Shown: positions 1 to 10,681 of the stretch, in pieces
Layout: the number at the start of each line of letters is the position of its first letter
How positions within the stretch are numbered: the first letter of the stretch is position 1
Virus record (IMG/VR): IMGVR_UViG_2671181127_000010
Coordinates: 1-10,681 of that record
DNA from: a virus
Lineage: Duplodnaviria > Heunggongvirae > Uroviricota > Caudoviricetes
Reading direction: 5' to 3' (one strand)
Length of the DNA stretch: 10,681 nucleotides
Position numbers and translations under genes: made by a program
Notes under the pieces: generated by a model
The model's input: the letters and a program-made list of their open reading frames with translations, nothing else
What the model was told of the DNA's origin: nothing
The model's database searches: none

Positions 1-1242
1 ATGGCGAGAAAAACACCCCCATTAACCACAGTGCAGATCAAAGCAGCCAGACCAGCACAAAAGGAGTACACCCTACAGGACGGTGGGGGGCTTTTTCTCC
101 TGGTCAAACCGTCCGGATCAAAACTCTGGAGATTTTCCTACTACCGACCATCGGACAAAAAAAGAATATTACTTAGTTTTGGATCGCTTGATGATGTTTC
201 CCTGGCTGATGCCAGAAAACGCCGTAGCGAGTACAGGGCGTTAATTCTTGCCGGAACTGACCCTCAGGACCACGAGAGGCAAAAACGAGAGGCAGAGGCC
301 AGAAGACAGGGGAATACGTTCGAAAATGTGGCTGCGGCATGGTATCAGGTGAAAATCAGCCAGAATCTTGCACCCAACACGATTAAAGACATCTGGCGAT
401 CGCTGGAGAAATATATATTCCCGTTCATCGGCAACACGCCAATAGATACCCTCACCGCCCGAAGGTTCGTTGAAGTGCTTACCCCCATCAAGGAACGCGG
501 CAACCTGGAAACACTCAAGCGGGTTTTACAGCGCGTTAATGAGGTAATGGATTACGCCGCCAACAGTGGGCTGATTGATGCCAATCCGGCTATGAATGTG
601 CGTAAGGCGTTCCCCTCCCCTGTAAAAAAACATATGCCAACAATCAGGCCCGAGCAGTTGCCGGAACTTATGCAGGCTTTATCCGTATCGGCAACAGAAC
701 GGCAAACCAGGCTACTTATTGAGTGGCAGCTACTGACCGTAACCCGTCCAGTTGAAGCATCGTCGGCACGCTGGGAAGAAATCGACATGGAGGCGCAACG
801 CTGGACCATACCCGCCGGACGCATGAAGATGCGCCGCGACCACGTTATCCCGCTTTGTGACCAGGCTATGGCAGTGCTGGAGGCTATGAAACCAATCAGC
901 CACCACCGCGATTATGTTTTCCCGAGTCTGAAAGACCCACAGCAGCCGATGAACAGCCAGACCGCTAACGCAGCATTACGACGCATGGGGTTCGCTGGCG
1001 TGCTGGTGTCTCATGGATTACGCGCCATATTCAGCACAGCAGCGAACGAGGAAGGATTCGAGCCGGACGTAATAGAGGCGGCACTTGCCCACGTCGACAC
1101 CAACGAAGTTAGACGGGCATACAACCGGAGCAACTACATAGAAAAACGCATCGTGCTGATGCGCTGGTGGGGCGAATTTGTCGAGGCTGCGGCGACGGGC
1201 GTAACCCTCGCCAGTGGTAAAAGGGGTATCCGAGCCGTGTAG
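1..1242 (+). CDS. int: Tyrosine recombinase / integrase, P4-family (413 aa)
   Basis: Full ORF from window position 1. N-terminus LFLLVKPSGSKLWRFSYY resembles the P4-type integrase N-terminal domain; C-terminal catalytic-type motifs HGLRAIFST and a terminal Tyr region (RAYNRSNY). Followed by alpA, the typical satellite arrangement. Confidence 0.9.
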   Translation: MARKTPPLTTVQIKAARPAQKEYTLQDGGGLFLLVKPSGSKLWRFSYYRPSDKKRILLSFGSLDDVSLADARKRRSEYRALILAGTDPQDHERQKREAEARRQGNTFENVAAAWYQVKISQNLAPNTIKDIWRSLEKYIFPFIGNTPIDTLTARRFVEVLTPIKERGNLETLKRVLQRVNEVMDYAANSGLIDANPAMNVRKAFPSPVKKHMPTIRPEQLPELMQALSVSATERQTRLLIEWQLLTVTRPVEASSARWEEIDMEAQRWTIPAGRMKMRRDHVIPLCDQAMAVLEAMKPISHHRDYVFPSLKDPQQPMNSQTANAALRRMGFAGVLVSHGLRAIFSTAANEEGFEPDVIEAALAHVDTNEVRRAYNRSNYIEKRIVLMRWWGEFVEAAATGVTLASGKRGIRAV

Positions 1243-4162: not shown

Positions 4163-4462
4163 ATGAGAACATATTTATCTGGCTTGACTGCCAGCGGCCC
4201 CGCTCGGCCTGAAATCCGCCCCGGAGATATTTTCAGAGATAACTACGGTGGCGTTGTTGAGATTAAAGGCGTGGCAGAACGGCGCATTACCTACCGCCGT
4301 GAAGGCTACGAATATGATTGCGTGATGCCTGTTTATCAGTTCCGGCGTGATTTTTCTCTGGTACAGGCAGCGCCCCGCAGTAAACCAACCAGCAGGGAGA
4401 AAGCACGCGCCAATATTCAGGAAATAAGAAAGATGTTGAATGTATTCAGGGGTAAAAAATGA
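4163..4462 (+). CDS. Hypothetical protein, 99 aa, immediately upstream of and coupled to the primase
   Basis: ATG 4163; stop overlaps primase start (ATGA at 4459-4462). Basic C-terminus. Function unknown. Confidence 0.55.
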   Translation: MRTYLSGLTASGPARPEIRPGDIFRDNYGGVVEIKGVAERRITYRREGYEYDCVMPVYQFRRDFSLVQAAPRSKPTSREKARANIQEIRKMLNVFRGKK

Positions 4463-6207
4463 AACTGGCACCGAACGTAAAAAAACAACCACGCGGAATA
4501 AAACACAAAGACACAGAGGTAATTATTTTCGCGGGTAGTGATGCGTGGGCACATGCAAAACAGTGGCAGGAGCAGGACGGCCCCGCATCCGGCGATAATG
4601 TGCCGCCTGTGTGGCTTGGGCCAAATCAGCTTGCCGAACTTGATGCACTGAAAATTGTTCCTGATGGAAAAAAACGCGTAAGGCTGTACCAGGCCGGAGA
4701 ACTGGATTTGGTGGAGACCAAAAAGATTGGTCAGAAGCTGGCGGCGGCAGATATTCAGGACGCAAATTTTTACCCCGAAGGAATGCACGTCCAGAAGTGT
4801 GAAAACTGGCGGCGCTATCTGAATGCTGAGCGTGAAAATATTGCCGCAGGGCTTACCATGCCGGAGCAGAAAAATACGCAACTGGCACAAATGGCAGACA
4901 GTGAGCGCGCGCAGCTGCTTGCCGAGCGCTTTGATGGCGTTTGTGTGCATCCGGAAAGTGAAATCGTTCACGTATGGCGCGGCGGGGTATGGTGTCCGGT
5001 CAGCACAATGGAACTTAGCCGCGAAATGGTGGCGATCTATTCAGAGCACAGGGCCACTTTCAGCAAGCGCGTAATCAATAACGCCGTGGAAGCGTTAAAA
5101 GTTATTGCCGAACCAATGGGCGAGCCGTCCGGCGATTTGTTGCCGTTCGCCAATGGTGCGCTTGACCTGAAAACGGGGGAATTTTCCCCGCACACGCCGG
5201 AGAACTGGATCACCACGCACAACGGCATTGAGTACACGCCACCAGCACCAGGGGAGAATATCTGCGACAACGCGCCAAACTTTCATAAATGGCTTGAGCA
5301 CGCAGCCGGAAAAGACCCGCGCAAGATGATGCGTATATGTGCCGCGCTGTACATGATTATGGCGAACCGGTACGACTGGCAGATGTTTATTGAGGCCACC
5401 GGAGAGGGCGGTAGCGGTAAAAGTACATTCACGCACATAGCCAGCCTTCTGGCAGGGAAACAGAACACGGTAAGCGCTGAAATGACCTCACTTGATGATG
5501 CTGGTGGACGTGCGCAGGTTGTCGGGAGTCGTCTTATCGTCCTGGCTGACCAGCCGAAATATACAGGCGAAGGAACGGGCATCAAGAAAATCACGGGCGG
5601 CGACCCCGTGGAAATAAACCCGAAATATGAGAAGCGTTTTACGGCGGTAATCAGGGCGGTGGTGCTGGCTACCAACAATAACCCGATGATATTCACCGAG
5701 CGGGCCGGAGGTGTGTCACGCCGTCGGGTGATTTTCCGGTTCGACAACATTGTAAGGGAGGACGAAAAAGACAAGGATTTGCCGGAGAAGGTCGCGGCTG
5801 AAATCCCCGTAATTATCCGTCGCTTGCTGGCTAATTTTGCCGACCCTGAAAAGGCACGGGCTTTATTACTGGAACAGCGCGACGGTGATGAAGCTCTGGC
5901 AATAAAGCAACAGACGGATCCGGTTATTGAGTTTTGCCAGTTCCTGAATTTTCTGGAGGAAGCACGCGGCCTGATGATGGGCGGCGGTGGCGATTCAGTG
6001 AAGTACACGACCAGAAACAGCCTTTACCGCGTCTATCTGGCGTTTATGGCATACGCAGGCAGGAGCAAACCGCTAAACGTGGCTGAGTTCAGCAAGGCCA
6101 TGAAGACAGCGGCAAAAGTTTACGGACATGAATATATTACGCGGAGAGTTAAGGGAGTAACGCAGACCAACGCAATTACAACTGATGATTGTGACGCGTT
6201 TTTATAA
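4459..6207 (+). CDS. Replication protein: primase / D5-type SF3 NTPase (P4 alpha C-terminal-like), 582 aa
   Basis: Walker A GEGGSGKST encoded around 5401-5427 in the D5/P4-alpha-type context (phage/plasmid primase P4-family C-terminal NTPase); RBS AGGGG 7 nt upstream; followed directly by an iteron array. Confidence 0.88.
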   Translation: MKLAPNVKKQPRGIKHKDTEVIIFAGSDAWAHAKQWQEQDGPASGDNVPPVWLGPNQLAELDALKIVPDGKKRVRLYQAGELDLVETKKIGQKLAAADIQDANFYPEGMHVQKCENWRRYLNAERENIAAGLTMPEQKNTQLAQMADSERAQLLAERFDGVCVHPESEIVHVWRGGVWCPVSTMELSREMVAIYSEHRATFSKRVINNAVEALKVIAEPMGEPSGDLLPFANGALDLKTGEFSPHTPENWITTHNGIEYTPPAPGENICDNAPNFHKWLEHAAGKDPRKMMRICAALYMIMANRYDWQMFIEATGEGGSGKSTFTHIASLLAGKQNTVSAEMTSLDDAGGRAQVVGSRLIVLADQPKYTGEGTGIKKITGGDPVEINPKYEKRFTAVIRAVVLATNNNPMIFTERAGGVSRRRVIFRFDNIVREDEKDKDLPEKVAAEIPVIIRRLLANFADPEKARALLLEQRDGDEALAIKQQTDPVIEFCQFLNFLEEARGLMMGGGGDSVKYTTRNSLYRVYLAFMAYAGRSKPLNVAEFSKAMKTAAKVYGHEYITRRVKGVTQTNAITTDDCDAFL

Positions 6208-7702: not shown

Positions 7703-7909
7703 ATGGCTGAAGAGAAAAAAGGCGGTGTTTCGGTGTACATAAGCCCCGACATCGTGAAGGCGCTCAAGGAACGCCACCAGCAGAACGTAAAAGCAGGCAT
7801 TGCGGCAGGACTTGATCCGCTGGCGATGGTTGAGCCGTCAACAGGCTGGCAGGTACGCGCCTATTTACGCGCGGCGCTGGGTATGAATCAGGTTCACGGG
7901 GGTGAATAA
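7703..7909 (+). CDS. Hypothetical small protein, 68 aa, first gene of the capsid module
   Basis: RBS AAGAGGA 10 nt upstream; stop overlaps the capsid gene start (TAATG). VSVYISPDIVKALKERH could be a beta-strand/helix DNA- or protein-binding element; function unknown. Confidence 0.6.
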   Translation: MAEEKKGGVSVYISPDIVKALKERHQQNVKAGIAAGLDPLAMVEPSTGWQVRAYLRAALGMNQVHGGE

Positions 7910-8964
7910 TGACAGTAAAAGCAATAGCACTTAACACTAACCAGCTTTTCGCGTACCTGAATCGCGAGGATATTGCGGAATTTAAATTCAGTCCGCTGTT
8001 TACCGCGCTGTTTTTCCCGAACGTGGCGACATTCAACACACAGGACATCATGTTAGATAACCTGGATATTGAAGAAGTCACTATGTCGGCGTTTTGTTCG
8101 CCTATGGTTGGTAGCCAGGTTCAGCGCGATAAAGGGTACGAAACCAGCATTATTCGCCCTGGCTACATGAAGCCAAAACACGAAATCGATCCATTAAAAA
8201 CAATAATGCGCATGGCTGGAGAAGATCCGGCACAGCTTAACGACCCTACCTACCGCCGTATGCGCCTGATTACTGGCAACATGCGCCGCCAGATAAACGC
8301 CATTAAAGCGCGCGTGGAATGGCTGGCGGTGAATGCGATAACGACCGGAAAAAACATCATTGAGGGCGAAGGCATAGAGCGCTATGAAATCGACTGGAAG
8401 ATACCGGAAAAAAACATCATAGAGCAGGCCGACGGTAAAAAATGGTCAGAGCAGGACAAAGACATACACGACCCAATCTATGACATTGAGCTATACGCAG
8501 ATCAGGCAGGTTGCCCCGCAAACGTCATGATTATGGGCGTTGATGTATGGCGCATGTTACGCAGCTTTAAAAAATTCCGTGAACTGTACGATCTCTCCCG
8601 TGGTTCAGAATCCGCCGCAGAGCTGGCATGTAAAAACCTGGGAGAAGTGGTGAGCTTTAAAGGCTATCTTGGTGATCTGGCCCTTATCGTCTATTCCGGC
8701 AAATACACTGACAGCGACGGCACAGAAAAATATTTCCTTGCGCCTGATTTGCTGGTCCTGGGCAACACCAACAATAAAGGGCTGGTGGCCTATGGTGCGA
8801 TTATGGAACAGGAAGCGGTAAGAACGGGCGCAACGCAAAACATGTTTTACCCGAAAAACTGGATTGAAGACGGCGATCCGGCGATTGAGTACGTGCAGAC
8901 ACACAGCGCGCCGCAGCCTGTTCCGGCAGATATTCGCAAATTTGTTACCGTCAAAATTGGTTAA
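7909..8964 (+). CDS. Major capsid protein, phage lambda gpE family (351 aa)
   Basis: Multiple blocks match my recollection of lambda gpE: FKFSPLFTALFF vs FKFDPLFLRLFF; PGYMKPKHEIDP vs PGYVKPKHEVNP; EDPAQLNDPTYRRMRLITGNMR vs EDPQNLADPAYRRRRIIMQNMR; WSEQDKDIHDPIYDIELYA vs WSKRDKSTYDPTDDIEAYA; YPKNWIEDGDPAIEY..QTHSAP vs YPKNWVTTGDPAREF..IQSAP. Similar length (351 vs 341 aa). Confidence 0.85.
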   Translation: MTVKAIALNTNQLFAYLNREDIAEFKFSPLFTALFFPNVATFNTQDIMLDNLDIEEVTMSAFCSPMVGSQVQRDKGYETSIIRPGYMKPKHEIDPLKTIMRMAGEDPAQLNDPTYRRMRLITGNMRRQINAIKARVEWLAVNAITTGKNIIEGEGIERYEIDWKIPEKNIIEQADGKKWSEQDKDIHDPIYDIELYADQAGCPANVMIMGVDVWRMLRSFKKFRELYDLSRGSESAAELACKNLGEVVSFKGYLGDLALIVYSGKYTDSDGTEKYFLAPDLLVLGNTNNKGLVAYGAIMEQEAVRTGATQNMFYPKNWIEDGDPAIEYVQTHSAPQPVPADIRKFVTVKIG

Positions 8965-8975
8965 CGGTGGATTCT

Positions 8976-9311
8976 ATGAACACTCCATACATTGAGTTAT
9001 TTGCAGGCAGTCAGCAGGTATCAACGACGCTGGTACATTTTGCCGCTGATGCTGGCGTTATTCAGGAATTTACCCCGCTGATGCTGGCGGACAATGGCGA
9101 GTTTAAGCCGTGGGATGGTCAGGAATCTGGCAAGGCTGTTTATCTGACTTCGTATCCTGTGGACACGTCAAAGCAGAAATCAGCACAGTGTTACAAGACG
9201 GGGATATTCAATATTGCCGCCGTTAACTGGCCTGAGAGCGTCGACACCGATGCGAAAAAATGCGCCGCCTTTGCGGGTTCCGGCGTATCCGTTCAGCCGC
9301 TGGCCCGATAA
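8976..9311 (+). CDS. Head decoration protein, lambda gpD-like (111 aa from ATG 8976; alternative GTG start 8967)
   Basis: TPLMLA, WDG, and C-terminal YKTGIFN...VNWPESVDTDAKKCAAFAGSGVSV parallel lambda gpD ([44 protein letters not shown]). RBS GGTGGA 5 nt upstream of ATG 8976. Confidence 0.8.
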   Translation: MNTPYIELFAGSQQVSTTLVHFAADAGVIQEFTPLMLADNGEFKPWDGQESGKAVYLTSYPVDTSKQKSAQCYKTGIFNIAAVNWPESVDTDAKKCAAFAGSGVSVQPLAR

Positions 9312-9323
9312 GCAGGGGGAACG

Positions 9324-9737
9324 ATGGCAACGAATGAAAGCATCATGGCGCTACCGCTGGCGAGTAAATTTAAAGAAGAAGCGCGGGCAATGGCTGACAG
9401 AGGTTTATCAACCTACGAGGCCGTATATCAACTCAACAAACTGGAAGAGCAGGACAAGCCGCGCGCTGATGCGATTATGGCGCTTCATGAGCATAAAGAC
9501 TATCAGCCGCTGTTACGTGCAATGGCAAACGTGCCATGTATTAGCGTCGATAATGCTCGTGAAATCCTGAACATGACCATAGAGCAGGAGCGCCCAAAGG
9601 TTGCACCAGAGCTTACCGCAGCCTTTGAAAACTTTATGGACATGCACAGCCCGCAAGCCGTATCAGCTGGCATGGCATACGATGGCAGAAACCAGGGCGA
9701 TGACGGCGACATCGATCGCATACTGAAAACCATCTGA
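9324..9737 (+). CDS. Hypothetical protein, 137 aa, last gene of the capsid module
   Basis: RBS GGGGGA 5 nt upstream; acidic C-terminus; followed by a terminator and a cos site. No confident motif. Confidence 0.6.
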   Translation: MATNESIMALPLASKFKEEARAMADRGLSTYEAVYQLNKLEEQDKPRADAIMALHEHKDYQPLLRAMANVPCISVDNAREILNMTIEQERPKVAPELTAAFENFMDMHSPQAVSAGMAYDGRNQGDDGDIDRILKTI

Positions 9738-9743
9738 GACAAG

Positions 9744-9767
9744 GCCGGAGAAATCCGGCTTTTTTTT
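9744..9767 (+). terminator. Rho-independent terminator (GCCGGA-gaaa-TCCGGC plus T8)
   Basis: Perfect 6-bp stem, tetraloop, 8 T residues; near-identical to the hairpin at 7469-7490. Confidence 0.7.
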
Positions 9768-9768
9768 A

Positions 9769-9840
9769 CGGGTCCTTTCCGGCATATGGACCCGTTACGG
9801 GGCGGCGACCTCGCGGTTTTTCGCTATTTATGAGATTTTT
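9769..9840 (+). other. Lambda-type cos site, copy L (cosN core GGGCGGCGACCT at 9800-9811, cosB side to the right)
   Basis: 9800-9838 reads GGGCGGCGACCTCGCGGTTTTTCGCTATTTATGAGATTT, close to the lambda genome left end GGGCGGCGACCTCGCGGGTTTTCGCTATTTATGAAAATTTTCCGG. Preceded by a hairpin ACGGGTCC...GGACCCGT. Confidence 0.75.
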
Positions 9841-10187
9841 TGAGGGGGTGGTTGTTGTTTAATTGTTTGGTATATCTAATTGATAAGTAAGGTAAAAATA
9901 AAATAAATACAACAACCTTACGATGTATTTTGATGTCATTAATGTGAAAAAATTCAATGATATCAAATGGTTTTGTAAAAACACATGGTTGTTGTATCGC
10001 GTATTTGATGGCGTAACAGAAAGTGATTTTTAACTTTACCGCTCTGTAACTACGGATTATTCCATGCTGGCACGGAGAACGGCTACGGCATGACGCCACC
10101 CAGCCTATACAGAACAGTAAAGCCGATAAATTGTTAATCACGCGCAGCAATGCGTGTGATTTTTGCACACTTCCGGTTAACTGGTAC

Positions 10188-10286
10188 GATGTCCGGTTTT
10201 AGTGTCTGTTTTTTGCGCATGTCCGGTTCATGGAAAGCATGTTTTTATATTTTTCATATGGTTAACTTGCAGAGAAACCGGACATG
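10188..10286. repeat. Candidate cosB R-type elements for the R cos site (ATGTCCGGTT repeats)
   Basis: ATGTCCGGTT at 10189-10198 and 10219-10228 (direct), inverted copy AACCGGACATG at 10276-10286, partial copy TCCGGTT at 10172-10178; positioned about 40, 100 and 130 bp from the R cosN, resembling the R3/R2/R1 layout of lambda cosB as I recall it. Confidence 0.4.
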
Positions 10287-10292
10287 GATCCC

Positions 10293-10370
10293 GGAAAATT
10301 TTCATAAATAGTGAAAACGCGCGAGGTCGCCGCCCCGTAACGGGCCATAATTCCAGGAAGGACCCGACGA
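10293..10370 (-). other. Lambda-type cos site, copy R (cosN core at 10324-10335 on the minus strand, cosB side to the left)
   Basis: Reverse complement of 10293-10335 reads GGGCGGCGACCTCGCGCGTTTTCACTATTTATGAAAATTTTCCGG, two mismatches from the lambda left-end sequence over 45 nt. Forms a roughly 70-bp imperfect inverted repeat with copy L. Confidence 0.8.
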
Positions 10371-10399
10371 CACCAGACTATCAGAGCGATGGGGGCACA

Positions 10400-10681
10400 A
10401 TGACAGAAGCCGAACTACTGGGATTAATCCGCCGCGTCGCCGGAATCAGCCAGCAGCATGACGAACAGGCCACACAGCCGGACAGCGTGACCGCTGAAAA
10501 TTATGTGCGTGTTGTAGCGGAAGTGATGCGCCGTGATGGTATAGAACTTAATGGCGTTGATATGCGCAACATACGGAACCGCGTTCTTGAAATGCTGGCC
10601 TACAATCGCCGCGTTGAACTGTATCGGGAGAAAGAAAAAATAACGTACCACTGGAAGAAGCCGGAACGGCTGCGGCGGTAA
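10400..10681 (+). CDS. Hypothetical small basic protein, 93 aa, adjacent to the R cos site
   Basis: ATG 10400 with G-rich RBS; the ORF-track extension from 10202 runs through the cos site and is rejected. Ends at the window edge with TAA. Function unknown. Confidence 0.5.
   Translation: MTEAELLGLIRRVAGISQQHDEQATQPDSVTAENYVRVVAEVMRRDGIELNGVDMRNIRNRVLEMLAYNRRVELYREKEKITYHWKKPERLRR

Follow-up and report, generated by a model that had tools for sequence, protein, structure and literature searches.

Two convergent cos sites with cosB arrays of two prophage types in an rpp-less Escherichia coli island of the EcCICFT073 family

Among PICIs (phage-inducible chromosomal islands) packaged through cos sites, the closest described system to the element treated here is EcCICFT073, which has two cos sites, both supporting transfer (PMC6092414). 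It was demonstrated that cos1 is needed for lambda- and phi80-mediated transfer and that deletion of cos2 raises transfer (PMC6092414). Its RppA protein (c1503) binds the small terminase subunit (TerS) of the helper, and in cosB-swap assays the cosB of cos1 alone gave RppA-dependent transfer, the Rpp-TerS redirection being the established mechanism in this island family (PMC6739421). The reason for having two cos sites was listed as an open question by Fillol-Salom et al. (2018, PMC6092414; 2019, PMC6739421), the island cosB was called 'completely divergent', and its R boxes, the phage source of cos2 and any inversion were unreported (PMC6092414, PMC6739421). The window analyzed here, i.e. the whole stretch of 10,681 nucleotides forming IMG/VR record IMGVR_UViG_2671181127_000010, is by its gene content and sequence a cos PICI of the EcCICFT073 family, a phage satellite of Escherichia coli. 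The segment between its two cosN copies (9800-10335) is probably a packaging cassette in which two phage-mimicking cosB arrays would give two helper specificities without Rpp.

Packaging by means of a helper-type cos carried by the satellite, rather than through a TerS of its own, has likewise been described for the cos-carrying Staphylococcus aureus pathogenicity islands (SaPIs) SaPIbov5 and SaPIbov4 (cited in PMC6092414), the latter being said to have two putative cos sites (PMC6092414). However, these cos-carrying SaPIs are Gram-positive, sequence-unrelated and dependent on HNH/cos terminase systems, and they are likened to the window by citation only (PMC6092414). With EcCICFT073 the window shares the family, the gene order, the lambda-like cosQ/cosN and the placement of two convergent cos sites between a 137-aa and a 93-aa gene. 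The complete EcCICFT073-type backbone (int, primase, SSB, PerC, E-like, D-like, 137-aa gene, cos, 93-aa gene) was recovered in the window, in an order collinear with CFT073 and with the islands of other E. coli genomes. In contrast, EcCICFT073 carries rppA and the Rpp-specific cos1 cosB between its cos copies, whereas the window lacks both and has prophage-type cosB instead: its left cos differs from the published Rpp-dependent cos1, and its right cos is a 97% homolog of cos2. The two-cos arrangement, the cos2 sequence and the difference of the island cosB from that of lambda are already known. The full-text literature revealed nothing on the R-box architecture of cos2, its prophage source or its cognate TerS domain, and nothing on an rpp-less island with two phage-type cosB or on a cos-bounded inversion, publication elsewhere being possible in both cases.

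The published sites were mapped from Fig. S1A of PMC6739421, cos1 corresponding to the left CFT073 site, with a cosB running into rppA, and cos2 to the right site, with ATGTCCGGTT repeats. The 144-aa open reading frame (ORF) between the CFT073 cos copies is RppA, in agreement with its length, the residues R21, T22, R25, W27 and K29, and the Fig. S1 sequence, and no other copy of the cos2-type cosB was found in the CFT073 genome. In the window, the two cosQ-cosN copies are convergent, their cores are exact reverse complements and their cosB sides face inward. Both preserve the lambda-like combination of a 12-nt GGGCGGCGACCT and a cosQ-like element ~20-35 bp upstream, in strings that agree with the published cosQ and cosN (Fig. 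S1A). The cosQ-like CGGGTCCTT is placed on the outer side of each cosN (9769-9777 and 10358-10366), within 72-nt inverted arms (9769-9840 / 10295-10366) that are 83% complementary and contain a 25-bp identical core. The tblastn comparison of the window with RppA and five TerS proteins revealed no rpp and no terS, just a 22-residue Rpp C-terminal remnant; hence no Rpp in the known sense, a mimic of the TerS DNA-binding domain of 144-153 aa, is encoded there. Moreover, the cos1-type cosB (CCGTGAAGGTGACACCACCACC...) is absent, the left cosB matching CFT073 only through 9840 and being prophage-type beyond, and the right side is the cos2 type over 10101-10380.

The arrays were described with box positions numbered from the first base of each cohesive end, cosN being bases 1-12. 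In the canonical cosB, R3 lies at bp 50-65, the order is R3-I1-R2-R1 and R2 is opposite in orientation (Murialdo & Feiss 2022, PMC9026076), and the GenBank record of phage 21 (M81255, L008) annotates R3, R2 and R1 at 50, 107 (inverted) and 150, with I1 between R3 and R2. Both halves of the spacer reproduced the R3-I1-R2 part of this layout. The left boxes, GGTTGTTGT, were found at 51+/110-/188+ from the left cosN, and the right boxes, (C)ATGTCCGGTT, at 51+/108-/138- from the right cosN, plus a partial copy at 158-. The first box is therefore at 51 on both sides, inside the expected range of bp ~50-65 from the cohesive end, and the inverted second box follows at 110 or 108, past a linker resembling a site for integration host factor (IHF) on the left and merely A/T-rich on the right. 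The positions and orientations of R3-I1-R2 bear out the lambda-like spacing that an earlier interpretation, made from the letters of the window alone (the sequence-only reading), had proposed for the right cos.

Similarly, the lambda-like cosB of lambda, 21, phi80 and Gifsy-1 have a first box at ~50-60, an A/T-rich or IHF-like segment and an inverted second box at ~107-110, with further boxes ahead of terS, as in the island arrays. The box sequences differ, being GGTTGTTGT and CATGTCCGGTT in the island versus CGTTTCC in lambda and CATGTCGGnCC in phage 21. Both sets are unlike the lambda CGTTTCC core (Fig. S1A), as the sequence-only reading had stated, and the right boxes share just a CATGTC..GG core with the annotated phage 21 boxes; phage 21 specificity, for which R boxes TTTCATGTCGGnCCTT and a TerS DNA-binding domain of the gp1 type are required, was not recovered. 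Regarding that specificity, the cos of CFT073 'phage 4', the native helper of the island, as printed in ISME J 2018 Fig. S5, has the sequence of the phage 21 cosB, including a TTTCATGTCGGGCCTT box and the gp1 start, and from this sequence the native helper of EcCICFT073 appears to have phage 21 packaging specificity.

In the left array, three exact copies of GGTTGTTGT were observed against 0.13 expected in the window, a number reached in 0/200 shuffles. Two of them, both on the plus strand, had been reported from the sequence alone and are exact, although that list was incomplete, the inverted copy at 9909-9917 having been overlooked. A further repeat of the same list, ATGGTTTTGT at 9966-9975, was misplaced by one base (its true place is 9967-9976) and was rejected as a box, its conservation in relatives being just partial. 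The linker between boxes 1 and 2 is 84% A+T and has a one-mismatch IHF consensus at 9873-9885, overlapping a conserved TTGATAAGTAA that is invariant in the prophage alignment save for one variant with a single change; this element is a candidate for IHF binding. Over the whole window the IHF consensus at <=1 mismatch occurs 6 times versus 10 expected, without enrichment, the clustering of three matches in the left cosB being what is notable. A distal R1-type box in R3 orientation is present at 188+, and the homology to phage cosB stops at ~10015, right before the phage terS ribosome-binding site.

In the right array, ATGTCCGGTT at <=1 mismatch was found 3 times against 0.66 expected in the window, and 8/200 shuffles reached 3; all three observed matches are exact and span <=97 bp. 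The repeats listed earlier at 10189-10198, 10219-10228, inverted at 10276-10286 and partially at 10172-10178 proved to be exact. The suggestion that the right A/T tract could be an IHF site fared less well, in that the tract is A/T-rich and aligns with I1 of phage 21 but has no consensus match at <=1 mismatch, and it stands as a weak candidate. On this side the distal forward box of the phage, at 146, is missing, and the island has the 138- and partial 158- boxes in its place; the right-hand type in phages has two inverted boxes and one forward box, whereas the island copy lacks the forward box and a downstream terS. The case for these repeats as cosB sites is carried by position and conservation more than by shuffle counts.

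Both half-spacers were found in prophages. The left half matches the region directly upstream of terS-terL-portal in prophages, such as those of the O111:H8 7-15 45A type (NZ_CP077588). The right half matches the corresponding region in a different prophage group and in the sequenced phages PhiR12_1 to PhiR12_5 (PhiR12 type, PV340549), 10189-10367 being 93.9% identical to the cos-terS interval of PhiR12_1. The cos of the PhiR12-type and O111:H8-type prophages are 90-94% identical to the right and left half-spacers, respectively, over the whole cosN-to-cosB interval; in the prophages each cosB precedes its cognate terS-terL operon, whereas in the island the two cosB face each other and a terminase gene is absent. 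The cosB of the published Rpp-specific cos1 served as a control and presented no phage match past the cosN-proximal ~50 bp. The two cosB types were found in 220 and 226 of 5426 complete E. coli genomes (~4% each), the left type occurring in E. albertii as well.

The association between box type and TerS type was assessed in 160 IMG/VR prophage loci, with cosN found in 148. The 77 loci with a VATQTEVARHL-type TerS had CATGTCCGGTT/ATGTCCGGTT-type boxes at 51+/108-/138-/146+ (137- instead of 138- in six of them) and no GGTTGTTGT, and the 71 with a M/VAFLLNKSDM-type TerS had GGTTGTTGT at 51+/110-/188+ (or 176+) and no ATGTCCGGTT; box type agreed with the type of the TerS N-terminal domain in all 148. 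From residue ~95 onward the two types of TerS are near-identical, but no relationship exists between their first ~60 residues (L004:6264-6770 versus L009:2728-3237). The Pfam Phage_Nu1 domain spans residues 6-149 of the left-type TerS (L004) and just 49-150 of the PhiR12 type, whose N-terminus shows no similarity to gp1 or Nu1. Judged from these alignments, the pair is a natural DNA-binding-domain swap travelling with the matching cosB box family. Moreover, in prophages whose TerS is just 71-79% identical, the linkers have diverged and suffered a 10-bp deletion, the three boxes and TTGATAAGTAA remaining unchanged, and in the right-hand type the linkers vary (ACAGGTCTTCTGTG versus ACATGCTTTCCATG) around constant boxes. 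A search for PhiR12-type TerS with one genome per species returned only genes disrupted by insertion sequences or of the left type, and hence no more divergent set for the right boxes. Lack of conservation, the objection that the sequence-only reading had raised against its own repeats, was not what was found, since the boxes are kept in homologous islands and prophages while the intervening linkers drift. Its suggestion of possibly two specificities gained support at the comparative level, the half-spacers copying two prophage families that differ in the N-terminal DNA-binding domain of TerS.

Taken together, the boxes are most likely R boxes bound by the N-terminal DNA-binding domain of the matching TerS. 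The left array is the cosB of prophages with a TerS starting MAFLLNKSDM, and the right array that of PhiR12-type prophages with a TerS starting VATQTEVARHL, the right array also being the published EcCICFT073 cos2. On the model of lambda and phage 21, a TerS dimer would contact box 1 and the inverted box 2 through its N-terminal winged-helix domains, the A/T-rich linker between the boxes being bent, and the bound TerS would set a shared-type large terminase subunit (TerL) on cosN, with packaging running toward the cosB side. The cosQ/cosN read by TerL are common to both sites, and the TerS types share their TerL-binding half, so that the two sites would be alternative entry points for two helper families. 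The sequences, box positions, conservation, phage origin, agreement of box and domain types and lack of rpp are observed; that TerS binds the boxes, that IHF bends the DNA, that both sites serve for packaging and that the helper range is widened are predictions from sequence comparison. With rpp and the Rpp-specific cosB of cos1 gone from the island, its predicted route of packaging is direct mimicry of two helper specificities instead of Rpp redirection; being without Rpp, it should neither depend on TerS redirection nor carry it out, and it probably also lacks Rpp-type interference with the helper. With lambda, cos2 costs something, its deletion raising transfer (PMC6092414), and its maintenance therefore needs another selective reason; it may have been kept in CFT073-type islands since it would serve a helper type absent from the published lambda and phi80 experiments. 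The coordinates of all these features, together with the island genes, are collected in Table 1.

Table 1. Island genes, cos elements, box arrays and spacer segments of the window
Feature	Position	Strand	Remarks
Integrase gene	1-1242		tyrosine integrase, sole recombinase in the window, at the far end from the cos region
Primase gene	4459-6207
SSB and PerC genes			after primase in the gene order
Lambda E-like capsid gene	7909-8964		PF03864, E=2.6e-49
D-like decoration gene	8967-9311		PF02924
137-aa gene	9324-9737		followed by the cos region
Spacer part	9764-10015		90.6% identity to the cos-to-terS interval of the O111:H8 prophage
Left cosQ-like element TTTACGGGTCCTTTCC	9765-9780	+	same letters as cosQ in PMC6739421, Fig. 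S1A
Left cosN, cohesive-end sequence GGGCGGCGACCT	9800-9811	+	inside the 25-bp core 9791-9815 identical in both arms
cosN-to-cosN cassette	9800-10335	.	in other genomes, either way round with respect to the island backbone
Left box 1, GGTTGTTGT	9850-9858	+	R3 equivalent, position 51; core GTTGTTGT invariant in 40 distinct prophage cosB variants
IHF-like element, linker of left boxes 1-2	9873-9890	-	TATCAATTAGATA (one mismatch to WATCAANNNNTTR) with overlapping conserved TTGATAAGTAA
Left box 2, ACAACAACC = inverted GGTTGTTGT	9909-9917	-	R2 equivalent, position 110; invariant among prophage variants
Left box 3, GGTTGTTGT	9987-9995	+	R1 equivalent, position 188; kept at 188, or 176 in divergent prophages
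Spacer part	10034-10105		reverse complement of the rppA 3' end, 84.7%
rpp 3'-end remnant	10039-10104	-	reads AGWRHAVAVLRASME, then stop; tblastn to RppA residues 123-144, 73% identity
Spacer part	10101-10380		last ~20 nt of rppA, terminator, cos2 and flank (CFT073), 97.1%
Last ~20 nt of rppA and terminator hairpin	10101-10165	+	collinear with CFT073; 5-bp overlap joins the minus-strand remnant
Partial box TCCGGTT	10172-10178	+	position 158, inverted relative to right cos; no counterpart of the phage's fourth box
Right box 3, ATGTCCGGTT	10189-10198	+	position 138, inverted relative to right cos
Right box 2, CATGTCCGGTT	10218-10228	+	R2 equivalent, position 108, inverted relative to right cos; 10-mer ATGTCCGGTT at 10219-10228
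A/T-rich linker (70% A+T), I1 position	10229-10275	-	includes TAACCATATG, aligning with annotated phage 21 I1
Right box 1, CATGTCCGGTT	10276-10286	-	R3 equivalent, position 50-51; 10-mer ATGTCCGGTT at 10276-10285
Right cosN (AGGTCGCCGCCC on + strand, GGGCGGCGACCT on -)	10324-10335	-	homolog of published EcCICFT073 cos2
Right cosQ-like element	10357-10372	-	reverse complement TGTCGTCGGGTCCTTC
93-aa gene	10400-10681		beyond the cos region

Several observations weigh against two functional arrays. The spacer centre looks like a recombination scar, and the island could be a degenerate derivative; the island right cosB lacks the fourth forward box of the phage (ATGACCGGTT, 146+) and may be a weakened site; and its half of the spacer has no IHF consensus match at <=1 mismatch. 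In addition, the 160 prophage loci belong to a few close lineages, so that the association between boxes and TerS amounts largely to two or three independent observations, and co-resident helper prophages of matching type are deduced from copy counts. One alternative, a degenerate product of island-prophage recombination in which at least one cos copy is non-functional and the repeats persist merely through recent capture, is considered unlikely. It would account for the rpp 3'-end remnants in both orientations with their 5-bp overlap junction, for the truncated TerS::Rpp fusion ORF without DNA-binding domain in another island (locus L170, described below), for the loss of the fourth phage box, and for the cos2 deletion in CFT073 that leaves lambda or phi80 transfer unreduced (PMC6092414). 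However, cosQ, cosN and all boxes as far as the breakpoint are intact in the two copies, and the breakpoints coincide exactly with the border of cosB or of the terS ribosome-binding site. In addition, the cassette occurs with 95-100% identity among 13 genomes or contigs, in either orientation and at two or more sites of integration, which implies continued mobility.

A second possibility is that the boxes are read by an Rpp-TerS heterocomplex, as for cos1, with Rpp supplied in trans by another island or by an unrecognised island protein. Redirection is established in the family (PMC6739421) and some genomes carry two islands, but the same boxes occupy the same positions directly upstream of terS in ~150 prophage loci, as the phage's own cosB, the published cosB swap gave RppA-dependent transfer from the cos1 cosB only (PMC6739421), and the window encodes no Rpp homolog; this alternative is very improbable. 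Hardly credible is the notion that the repeats are transcriptional operators or promoter elements that belonged to the late or terS region of the phage and came along with cos, devoid of a packaging role, for although the boxes lie upstream of terS in prophages and A/T-rich DNA with short inverted repeats is typical of operators, their spacing is fixed relative to cosN (51, 108-110) and not to the terS start (195 to 229), their layout copies the annotated R3-I1-R2 of phage 21, and the island has no downstream gene to regulate and an empty promoter scan in the spacer. Two phage-type cosB arrays with a packaging role remain the probable reading.

The cassette also occurs in either orientation. 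In S1-CAM-02-A (L003), the match to 9769-10366 of the window lies on one strand and the matches to all flanking island genes lie on the other, and the in silico reverse complement of exactly 9800-10335 turned three alignments into one 1376-bp collinear alignment of 97.9% identity, arm-specific bases confining the exchange to the 25-bp core. Of the complete genomes with a window-type cassette, 3 have it in the native and 8 in the flipped orientation. The cos2-type cosB adjoins the flank of the 93-aa gene in 41 genomes and that of the 137-aa gene in 31, the IMG/VR islands being native in 13/13. Cassettes of the rppA type are flipped in NR329 (L005), WP4-S17-ESBL-08 and KGu016, with rppA intact and antisense to the island operon. 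Since two cassette types each occur in both orientations, the sequences imply that the island family has undergone at least two inversions, the exchange being placed at cosN or close to it. That the inversion is an artefact of assembly is unlikely, the arms sharing just 25 identical bases and both orientations recurring in dozens of complete genomes. Frequent switching resembling phase variation was not supported, because the sampled flipped rppA-type genomes look like one lineage and the native/flipped pair at the tRNA-Pro site is just 96.7-98.5% identical.

The inversion probably arises as a by-product of the inverted arrangement of the cos copies. As the geometry of the sequence suggests, the terminase could cut both cosN, releasing a fragment with GGGCGGCGACCT 5' overhangs at both ends that would re-anneal either way; alternatively, the arms would undergo homologous (RecA or Red) exchange or gene conversion. 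In islands of the NR329 type, the arm next to the 137-aa gene bears the cosQ-cosN spacer of the other arm, one junction being in cosQ, ~30 bp outside cosN, which favours homologous exchange for at least that event, or a later conversion, and leaves pure terminase cut-and-rejoin unsupported as the explanation of all cases. The combined proposal that the terminase itself flips the cassette, cos being a natural inversion site, and that the two cosB arrays exploit two TerS specificities without Rpp is rather doubtful. In the flipped rppA-type islands (L005, L189, L190), both arms have the same cosQ-cosN spacer ttcctggaattatgg, forming a perfect inverted repeat of ~47 bp that looks like gene conversion between the arms. 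RppA is 100% identical to the CFT073 protein in such islands despite the antisense placement, and because it is unchanged, rppA presumably has its own promoter inside the cassette.

In the Hin/Gin/Cin switches and in shufflons, a segment between short inverted repeats is present in both orientations in a population. The cassette resembles them in these respects, but its exchange takes place in the cos core, no invertase gene lies within it, and no serine invertase, as expected for a dedicated Hin/Gin-type system, is encoded in the window. Unlike Hin/Gin/Cin, this gene-less cassette has no evident expression switch, and no functional consequence of its orientation is evident. The direction of packaging is unlikely to matter by way of lateral transduction, which according to PMC12829572 is not carried out by cos phages.

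Other islands carry other combinations between their cos copies, and from these sequences the cassette is modular, the window variant being the one with two phage-type cosB arrays and no protein gene. For example, the island of 2012C-4221 (L170) has a complete PhiR12-type cos, then a 69-codon ORF, with a convergent GGTTGTTGT-type cos beyond. In this ORF (L170:3281-3490, minus), residues 1-9 of the PhiR12-type TerS (VATQTEVAR) are joined to the Rpp C-terminal part, without a DNA-binding domain; it looks like an intermediate in the recombination of a cos-terS module from a phage with the rpp of an island. In islands of the O55/O157 type (L007, E. coli 95-3192, phoQ site), a full-length 180-aa Nu1-family TerS homolog is placed between the cos copies (features at 4244-4786 and 4800-4975), and the convergent cos presents a third box family, TCAGATCC, in forward/inverted/forward order, with a cosB ~72% similar to those of Gifsy-1 and SerU-LTIIb.

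The rpp-less cassette itself is 95-100% identical in 11 complete genomes and 2 IMG/VR contigs, at two or more chromosomal sites. STEC2018-607 (NZ_CP075697.1) has two copies of the rpp-less two-cosB island, at ~804-815 kb (L184) and ~5.12 Mb, and additional copies of both cosB types, in 3 and 4 places; these may belong to helper prophages residing in the same strain. In JNEC-KY203, an otherwise identical island is split by an IS1 element (L001:1-5127, L001:10053-10750), and a Mu-like prophage (transposase, AAA ATPase, Gam) occupies the expected place of its integrase end. Within the spacer of the window, an Rfam scan of 9650-10450 at E<=1 gave zero matches, hence no known RNA, a promoter scan gave no sigma-70-like site, and the only terminators were that of the 137-aa gene and the rppA-remnant hairpin. 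Two spacer ORFs (114 aa minus, 53 aa plus) were taken as spurious, since they are unannotated in the RefSeq genomes with the cassette and overlap the remnants. Regarding the structural genes, some RefSeq records give the product of the 137-aa gene the name 'phage head-tail connector protein'. EcCICFT073 was said to lack capsid morphogenesis genes and to be packaged in full-sized helper capsids (2018 paper, PMC6092414); the E-like, D-like and 137-aa genes of the window contrast with the first of these statements.

The comparison offers a concrete and testable answer to the published question of why these islands keep two cos sites. Instead of being a divergent oddity, cos2 faithfully reproduces the cosB found in a common family of prophages, the TerS of which has another DNA-binding domain, and the island in the window went further, its Rpp module having been replaced by a second phage-type cosB. 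The natural TerS domain swaps, which combine the same C-terminal half with a different N-terminal domain and different boxes, are a clean system for the study of packaging specificity. Moreover, the inversion polymorphism may be a natural trace of cutting or recombination at both cos sites in vivo, and a flip driven by the terminase, if real, would make cos a natural site-specific inversion site. If the two-array reading is true, the helper range of cos satellites would be set by the cosB modules that they have collected and would be predictable from sequence, by matching island boxes to the N-terminal domains of prophage TerS, which would bear on the prediction of the mobilisation of virulence and defence cargo in E. 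coli and on the design of synthetic PICI delivery vehicles.

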